Both the position numbers and the translations under genes were made by a program. Below the pieces are notes generated by a model. That model was not told where the DNA came from, did not search any database, and saw only the letters and a list, made by a program, of their open reading frames with translations. Shown piece by piece: positions 48,758-49,531 of a stretch of DNA of 64,000 nucleotides. The DNA is from a virus (taxonomy: Duplodnaviria > Heunggongvirae > Uroviricota > Caudoviricetes): the IMG/VR virus record IMGVR_UViG_2909262264_000005; one strand, written 5' to 3'. How positions within the stretch are numbered: position 1 is the first letter of the stretch; every line of letters starts with the position of its first letter.

Positions 48758-49531
48758 ATGGATATTACTGAGTTTCCTTCTGGAGTAATTGAACACCTTG
48801 GCTGGTATGTATACCGATTGATTGATCCGAGGGACGGAAGCACCTTCTATGTAGGGAAAGGCAAAGGTAACCGCGTATTTGCCCATATGCGCGGTGAAGT
48901 GGCAGCGACTGATGATGACGAGTTACTGAGCAACAAGCTAAAGCAAATTAGAGAAATAAGGTTAGCAGGACTTGAAGTTATCCATGTCATCCATCGACAC
49001 GGAATGACTGATGAAAAGACGGCGTACGAAGTTGAAGCAGCACTTATTGATGCCTACCCTAGGTTAACGAATATCATGAATGGTGCTGGCAGCAATGAAT
49101 TCGGCGCCGCGCATGTCAAAGAGTTGATAGCAACATATCAGCCCGAAACCATAACATTTCATCATAAAGCATTAATGATATCCGTTAACAGAAGTGCAAA
49201 GGATTCAGAGCTTTATGATGCGGTTCGATTTAGCTGGCGCATTAATGTCTCTCGCGCCAGCCAAGCAGAAATCATTCTTGCTACTGTAAGAGGGATCGTT
49301 CGAGGGGTTTTCATTGCTGATAAATGGCTCAAATCAACACGTGAAAATTTCCCTTCGTTGAAATACTGGGACGAGGATCCTGACTTTGAGGCAACACAAA
49401 GTTCGCGCTATGGTTTTGAAGGTCGAGAAGCCCCACCTGAAATAGCAAATCTTTATCTTGGAAAAAAAATACCAGATGAATTAAGAAAAAAAGGAGCTAT
49501 GTCCCCGGTCCGTTACTCACCTAATTTTTGA
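48758..49531 (+). CDS. GIY-YIG nuclease-domain protein with uncharacterised C-terminal domain
   Basis: N-terminal [29 protein letters not shown] ... EVEAALIDA matches the GIY-YIG pattern; ~150-aa C-terminal region has no recognisable motif. Confidence 0.7.

Follow-up and report, generated by a model that had tools for sequence, protein, structure and literature searches.

The closest described relative of the gene studied here is PD-T4-3, which came from a functional selection that yielded 21 systems, with a GIY-YIG nuclease mentioned among them (Vassallo 2022, PMC9519451). It was originally found in the isolate ECOR68, and the main text of that paper does not describe it individually. David et al. 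(bioRxiv 10.1101/2024.12.20.629700) reported that the clinical strain NILS69 has just two active systems and that PD-T4-3 is one of them. It protects this strain, and K-12 after transfer, against Tevenvirinae, and its activity was also demonstrated by deletion in the native host. A homologue from Capnocytophaga (48% identical) blocks T4 and not the unmodified T4-GT7; in vitro it breaks down the DNA of T4 and of Mu, and its active-site residues are required (Cell Host Microbe 2025, PMC12366544). We analysed 64,000 nucleotides of Escherichia coli strain WAT (NZ_CP012380.1; IMG/VR record IMGVR_UViG_2909262264_000005), hereafter the window, in which a gene at 48758..49531 evidently encodes a copy of this enzyme. 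An initial annotation, made from the letters alone, had proposed this gene as a standalone, single-gene anti-phage nuclease.

PD-T4-3, discovered in 2022, was renamed CMoRE by Liu et al., whose account of the mechanism and the crystal structures appeared in January 2026 (Nat Commun 2026, PMC12923530); the system is known in detail. In that study, CMoRE defended against T2, T4 and T6 by about 5 logs with no abortive infection. The enzyme binds and, in a Mg/Mn-dependent manner, degrades DNA containing 5-hydroxymethylcytosine (5hmC) or glucosyl-5hmC (5ghmC), and not DNA with cytosine or 5-methylcytosine (5mC). Cleavage follows a C N11/N9 G pattern, depends on a pair of modified cytosines and produces 2-nt 3' overhangs; there is no strict sequence specificity, only a dependence on base modification. 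The residues for catalysis are the GIYxY-YIG motif (Y17, Y19 and Y31) plus an Arg and a Glu. Between helices alpha2 and alpha3, an acidic insert of 15 residues forms a loop that sits over the active site; its neutralised form, the 4A mutant, is active on normal DNA and toxic. The protein is a tetramer (a dimer of dimers) whose disruption by V92S/L96S abolishes defence. At the C-terminal domain, 5hm-dCTP is bound via the backbone of Y127, with the 5hmC at an edge and not in a pocket (all PMC12923530).

The open reading frame (ORF) in the window was reproduced exactly as first annotated, in coordinates, strand and length:

48758..49531 (+): coding sequence of PD-T4-3/CMoRE, 257 aa, ATG start, RefSeq WP_094033049.1

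Judged by its relatives this is a real gene, and a chance ORF can be dismissed because 4849 protein clusters (clustered at 50% identity) match it at E<=1e-3 and 331 at <=1e-30. A sequence search of the PDB returned two proteins, both titled 'GIY-YIG domain-containing protein': CMoRE of E. coli O157:H7 (9U75/9U8D, E 6.6e-170) and CMoRE of APEC O1 (9U7U/9U7Z, E 2e-149). By direct count, 249 of 257 residues are identical to the O157:H7 enzyme (9U75; 96.9%) and 218 of 257 to that of APEC O1 (9U7U; 85%). Over its entire length the protein matched the PADLOC-DB profile for PD-T4-3 (PDLC04031; E 7.4e-139, residues 1-256 against profile positions 1-255 of 256) and the unannotated phrog_5356 (PHROG 5356); an NCBIfam search with the protein found no family model. 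On these alignments we regard the window protein as an ordinary, near-identical copy of PD-T4-3/CMoRE, a single-gene defence enzyme that is already known: it is named, present in PADLOC and DefenseFinder, biochemically characterised and crystallised. The proposal of the initial annotation is borne out by the level of identity, and the checks that it had suggested agree, in that PADLOC recognises the full-length protein, the gene turns up again in some 823 of the 5426 complete E. coli genomes, and the modelled C-terminal domain and the CMoRE crystal structure superpose at 1.3 A.

The GIY-YIG pattern reported at the N terminus also held up. Pfam assigned LEM-3_GIY-YIG (PF22945, E 1.1e-14) to aa 28-110, and the generic GIY-YIG model remained sub-threshold (E 0.047). 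The residues picked out at first sight correspond to Y17/Y19/Y31/G33/G35/R39/H43/E93, which are invariant in 81 diverse homologues. RefSeq labels WP_094033049.1 a 'LEM-3-like GIY-YIG domain-containing protein'; we rejected this as a functional assignment, as the label reflects only similarity of the catalytic domain. The parts of the protein map to the window as follows:

48758..49102 (+): N-terminal GIYxY-YIG nuclease domain (aa 1-115), with Y17, Y19, Y31, R39, H43, E93 and N105 and the dimer-interface residues V92/L96
48911..48922 (+): predicted acidic autoinhibitory loop DDDE (aa 52-55), read from sequence; DDDD in the O157:H7 protein
49061..49063 (+): codon 102, carrying the private G102R; G in the common allele WP_000355482.1
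49133..49528 (+): C-terminal modification-sensing domain (aa 126-257), including Y127, the backbone contact to the 5-hydroxymethyl group

Every published functional residue is kept in the window protein (Y17, Y19, Y31, R39, R80, E93, V92, L96, Y127 and DDDE 52-55). Across the 81 homologues, the set Y17/Y19/Y31/R39/H43/E93/N105 is invariant or at least 90% conserved, and the loop at aa 52-55 is acidic in most members. V92 and L96, which form the interface of the tetramer required in the published work, are likewise conserved in sequence comparison. AlphaFold2 (AF2) models were confident overall, with predicted local distance difference test (pLDDT) values of 92 and 91. The acidic loop, lying between helices at 39-45 and 57-69, scored low (66), as would be expected for a flexible lid. 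Superposition of the modelled C-terminal domain on the crystal structure identifies the domain that had been left unassigned as the published 5hmC/5ghmC sensor. The window and O157:H7 proteins thus share length, GIYxY-YIG motif, acidic loop, interface residues, Y127 and two-domain fold; they differ by eight substitutions, one of which, G102R, is private to WAT.

The locus very probably encodes a CMoRE-type type IV restriction enzyme that acts, non-abortively, on phage DNA containing hydroxymethyl- or glucosyl-hydroxymethyl-cytosine. We take the mechanism from the crystallised protein, which is 97% identical, and our own analysis covers identity, functional residues, fold and genomic context. 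By analogy, the window enzyme would assemble as a dimer-of-dimers tetramer whose C-terminal domains bind 5hmC or 5ghmC DNA and leave C and 5mC DNA unbound. A dimer would read a pair of modified cytosines spaced by about 21 bp (C N11/N9 G), and the N-terminal GIYxY-YIG domain, with Mg2+ or Mn2+, would cut between them to leave 2-nt 3' overhangs. The DDDE loop over the active site would keep the enzyme off ordinary host DNA. The predicted outcome is direct, non-abortive destruction of T-even-type phage genomes, which would protect the lysogen and its prophage.

Both the Pfam and RefSeq labels, and the finding that CMoRE's GIY-YIG domain comes structurally closest to UvrC (PMC12923530), could be taken to indicate an abortive-infection toxin or a general DNA-damage nuclease with a UvrC/LEM-3/SLX1-like role in repair. 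We give this reading almost no credence. The LEM-3 label speaks to the catalytic domain only, and published infection dynamics contradict both roles: at a multiplicity of infection >1, CMoRE-bearing cells grew normally, with host DNA untouched and phage DNA depleted (PMC12923530). Vassallo et al. scored PD-T4-3 as direct defence, as cited in the same paper.

A free-standing GIY-YIG homing endonuclease of the I-TevI/Seg type, cutting a cognate site in related phages, is comparably far-fetched. The C-terminal half of the protein is not a NUMOD, zinc-finger or helix-turn-helix (HTH) module; it corresponds to the 5hmC-binding domain of the crystal structure, and Pfam domains of those three kinds were found neither in the window protein nor in 48 C-terminal domains of homologues. 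The gene sits at a prophage end beside an attachment-site (att) relic and is neither within nor adjacent to a conserved target gene, as the initial annotation had argued when it set homing aside, and the near-identical published enzyme depends on modification with no strict sequence specificity (PMC12923530). Domain, location and specificity together exclude this candidate. Compared with GIY-YIG homing endonucleases such as I-TevI and with the type II enzyme Eco29kI, CMoRE has an extra tyrosine (GIYxY) and the acidic lid insert, and a modification reader takes the place of their sequence-specific DNA-binding module, such that it senses modification and not sequence. A reading of raw sequence had picked out a real single-gene defence nuclease and turned down the homing alternative, with little new science in the result itself.

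Several observations weigh against assuming that the WAT copy of CMoRE is expressed and active. A promoter scan of the 360-bp intergenic region upstream of the gene found no good sigma-70 consensus, and no recognisable Shine-Dalgarno sequence precedes the ATG (catagatattgcaaaATG; window 48730..48760). Because neither signal was clear, we infer expression only from the published 'native promoter' constructs, in which a homologous upstream region drove defence; weak signals may also reflect deliberately low expression of a nuclease. The second point is G102R. This is the sole amino-acid difference from the common E. coli allele, as present in strain MB06171, and among complete E. coli genomes the WAT record alone matches the window gene at 100% DNA identity. 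The substitution falls within the conserved segment YPGLTN; the near-invariant N105 follows three residues later. The activity of this particular allele is again something we infer, and loss of function is not predicted.

Taken together with the weak activity of the APEC O1 allele from its native promoter (PMC12923530), the missing consensus signals and the private substitution could mean that the WAT copy is a decaying or attenuated, non-functional allele. We consider this unlikely. The frame is intact and full length, every residue proven by mutagenesis is kept, and the AF2 block 101-110 around the substitution is still confident (pLDDT 90). Position 102 is moderately conserved, with G in 57 of the 81 diverse homologues (70%) and R in two, counting the WAT copy, and it tolerates N, E, D, R or A in other members of the family. 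An active CMoRE remains our preferred reading of the locus.

The C-terminal sensor of CMoRE was published as a 'distinct fold' with 'no structural homologues'. We compared the domain with known structures, using the AF2 model that matches the crystal, and all of the resulting scores lie in the grey zone. They place the model near the THYN1 EVE domain in complex with 5mC DNA (5.4-5.5), the EVE-HNH type IV enzyme VcaM4I (5.4-6.1), the PH1033 EVE domain (5.2-5.6), several YTH domains (about 5.0-5.5) and the N-terminal, YTH-like domain of McrB from Staphylothermus (5.0 over 104 aligned residues). Weaker matches of the model were to T. gammatolerans McrB and the UHRF1 SRA domain. After self matches, Foldseek returned only YTH, ASCH and VcaM4I (E 0.01-0.08, probability up to 0.96, TM 0.3-0.5). 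The matches of the model appear strikingly coherent, in that they fall in the PUA-like superfamily, the very one from which other type IV enzymes draw their modified-base readers (PMC6765204).

Sequence searches gave no such relation. A Pfam scan of the 48 C-terminal domains at E<=5 found no EVE, ASCH, YTH or SRA match, and a C-terminal profile searched against the PDB at E<=10 retrieved only CMoRE itself. Neither PD-T4-3 paper mentions PUA, ASCH or YTH for this domain. We judge it an even bet that the 5hmC/5ghmC sensor is a highly diverged PUA-like pseudobarrel (ASCH/EVE/YTH-like) and not a distinct fold. If so, a GIY-YIG enzyme would share its reader superfamily with the EVE-HNH, SRA-HNH and McrB-type type IV systems. 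Differences would remain. In the EVE-HNH, SRA-HNH and PvuRts1I-AbaSI enzymes (VcaM4I, TspA15I, AbaSI) the nuclease is HNH or Vsr-like/PD-(D/E)XK, whereas in CMoRE it is GIY-YIG and N-terminal; the CMoRE reader has no sequence-level relation to the EVE/SRA-type readers and holds 5hmC at an edge, not in a pocket. Fold-level evidence for a PUA-like sensor, set against the published statement, is of modest specialist interest.

We next turn to the surroundings of the gene. The window begins with smpB and ssrA (tmRNA gene 698..1060), and the last 27 nt of ssrA recur further along. The features that bound and fill the region around CMoRE are:

45414..45440 (+): second ssrA 3' att core, an exact 27-nt repeat of 1034..1060 (0 expected by chance)
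45669..46883 (+): EcoRII-type type II restriction endonuclease (Pfam EcoRII-N E 4e-61 and EcoRII-C E 4e-71; PADLOC REase_II E 4e-234)
46918..48393 (-): C5-cytosine (Dcm/EcoRII-type) DNA methyltransferase (Pfam DNA_methylase and DNA_meth_N; PADLOC MTase_II E 4e-230; RefSeq start 48351)
49601..50185 (-): tail fibre assembly gene of prophage B, followed by tail fibre, Lom and J genes, also on the minus strand

Since the 27-nt ssrA 3' end is repeated just after an integrase gene (44082..45281), two related lambdoid prophages lie in tandem at ssrA: prophage A at 1061..45413, to which the integrase belongs, and prophage B from 45441 to beyond 64000. The att core at 45414..45440 is the junction of prophage A with the cargo island of prophage B. 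After this core come the EcoRII endonuclease, the C5-cytosine methylase and then CMoRE, the terminal cargo of the second prophage. The picture first drawn of this region proved accurate in its main lines: an AT-rich island (GC 0.41-0.46, against 0.5-0.6 in the prophage bodies), placed between the att junction and the tail fibre assembly gene and adjoining a restriction-modification (R-M) system. CMoRE had also been called variable cargo, missing from the equivalent position in prophage A, and no ORF of at least 120 aa was present at 1061..1577.

The endonuclease and methylase genes are convergent and form a complete type II R-M system carried as prophage cargo (45669..48393). An EcoRII R-M system 80% identical to it is also found on plasmid NZ_CP073933.1. 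EcoRII cuts unmodified CCWGG, and its cognate methylase makes 5mC, which CMoRE would neither bind nor cut. Because CMoRE ignores 5mC, the two systems should be compatible in one cell and would have complementary targets; the island plausibly provides two layers, EcoRII against unmodified and CMoRE against hypermodified DNA. It counts against this complementarity that the whole 4.1-kb EcoRII-methylase-CMoRE island occurs in only 245 of the 5426 complete E. coli genomes, out of about 823 that bear CMoRE. That 245 genomes carry EcoRII R-M and CMoRE together, as a compact restriction cargo of two layers at the end of a lambdoid prophage, is of modest specialist interest.

CMoRE itself was present in 838/5426 complete E. 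coli genomes, or 823/5426 at a coverage of at least 80%, and its neighbours vary. Where a strain has only one prophage, the genes run intact ssrA, EcoRII, methylase, CMoRE and tail fibre assembly gene. O157:H7 and strain 204446 carry CMoRE near an AraC-type regulator and integrase-borne islands (an ABC-three-component system, a SIR2 protein), and in O157:H7 and strain E4 it adjoins a Mu/e14-like prophage's tail fibre genes and pinE invertase gene. Whereas the window copy lies beside EcoRII R-M at an ssrA-integrated lambdoid prophage, the O157:H7 copy lies beside a tRNA-Ser att fragment and pinE/tail-fibre genes in another type of prophage; in the window and elsewhere alike, CMoRE is a single-gene unit at a prophage end. 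The constant part across these contexts is the gene and about 200 bp upstream:

48557..48757 (+): upstream DNA travelling with CMoRE (presumed native promoter region), from alignment to O157:H7 PA20 and strain 204446

As the neighbours differ between genomes while this unit is constant, CMoRE is on comparison a single-component system with no obligate partner gene.

The homology shared with O157:H7 PA20 and strain 204446 starts at CGGTTTTCGAGACCG, about 200 bp before the ATG. A tRNA-Ser fragment of 62 nt marks that point in O157:H7 and strain 204446 (comparison locus L003, ~6740..6800) and is identical to an annotated tRNA-Ser gene. In the window, 19 nt of the fragment survive at 48560..48578, some 180 bp ahead of the start of CMoRE. 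In the loci of other strains, ARAGORN detected no intact tRNA next to CMoRE, and the 5' half of the tRNA-Ser gene is absent from the CMoRE loci; the piece beside CMoRE is therefore a partial tRNA-Ser copy. It seems from these alignments that a tRNA-Ser att junction was the first site of CMoRE, as terminal cargo, and that the EcoRII R-M system and the ssrA junction joined later. The mobile unit thus consists of one gene with its own upstream region, set between an att relic and a backbone terminator. Such a locus agrees with a single-gene defence 'moron' and with the defence hotspots that Vassallo et al. described at prophage ends (PMC9519451).

The initial annotation had placed a terminator directly after the gene, and a strong one is present:

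49551..49598 (+): hairpin and U-run, an intrinsic terminator where the CMoRE and tail fibre assembly genes converge, found by folding and conserved in prophage A

A simple terminator scan missed the hairpin at 49551..49589, which RNA folding showed clearly (-25.4 kcal/mol, z -4.44); it is directly 3' of the stop codon and is followed by U5CU6. What did not stand is its link to CMoRE. The same hairpin occurs in prophage A at 1529..1575 (1529..1583 with the U-run), where there is no CMoRE gene, and homology between the two prophages begins exactly at the hairpin, with 1529..1660 and 49551..49680 nearly identical, including the ends of the tail fibre assembly genes. For these two reasons we assign the hairpin to the prophage backbone; it is not specific to CMoRE. 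It is also found downstream of CMoRE in other strains.

Relatives of CMoRE also occur in phage genomes. A megablast search of a phage collection with the gene found nothing; at the protein level, tblastn against phage genomes revealed homologues at 33-45% identity. Those of full length (37-45% identity) come from phiKZ-like jumbo phages of Serratia, Pectobacterium, Pantoea, Klebsiella and Pseudomonas, two examples being:

4001..4765 of Serratia phage Moabite (locus L007): jumbo-phage CMoRE homologue
3992..4753 of Pseudomonas phage OBP (locus L008): jumbo-phage CMoRE homologue

The phages are virulent, and the genes are free-standing among hypothetical genes and annotated as 'endonuclease' or 'putative homing nuclease'. 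The encoded proteins keep Y17, Y19, Y31, R39, H43, E93 and N105 and are missing the acidic DDDE run. Possibly they are de-repressed nucleases directed at host or rival-phage DNA. These loop-less full-length homologues, of modest specialist interest, and the private G102R of WAT are minor additions to what was known of the family.

We also note four genes of prophage A. An SPFH-domain protein is encoded near the integrase end (42285..43112, +) and had no PADLOC match. A small HTH protein (40178..40597, +) gave weak PADLOC RmrA/HTH matches, in the HTH region only (E ~5e-9). A tRNA-Gly gene with anticodon TCC lies at 26741..26815 (-). Beside the Q antiterminator, an OmpC-like porin (31523..32620, +; RefSeq 'porin OmpC') resembles the lc/nmpC porins of lambdoid phages.
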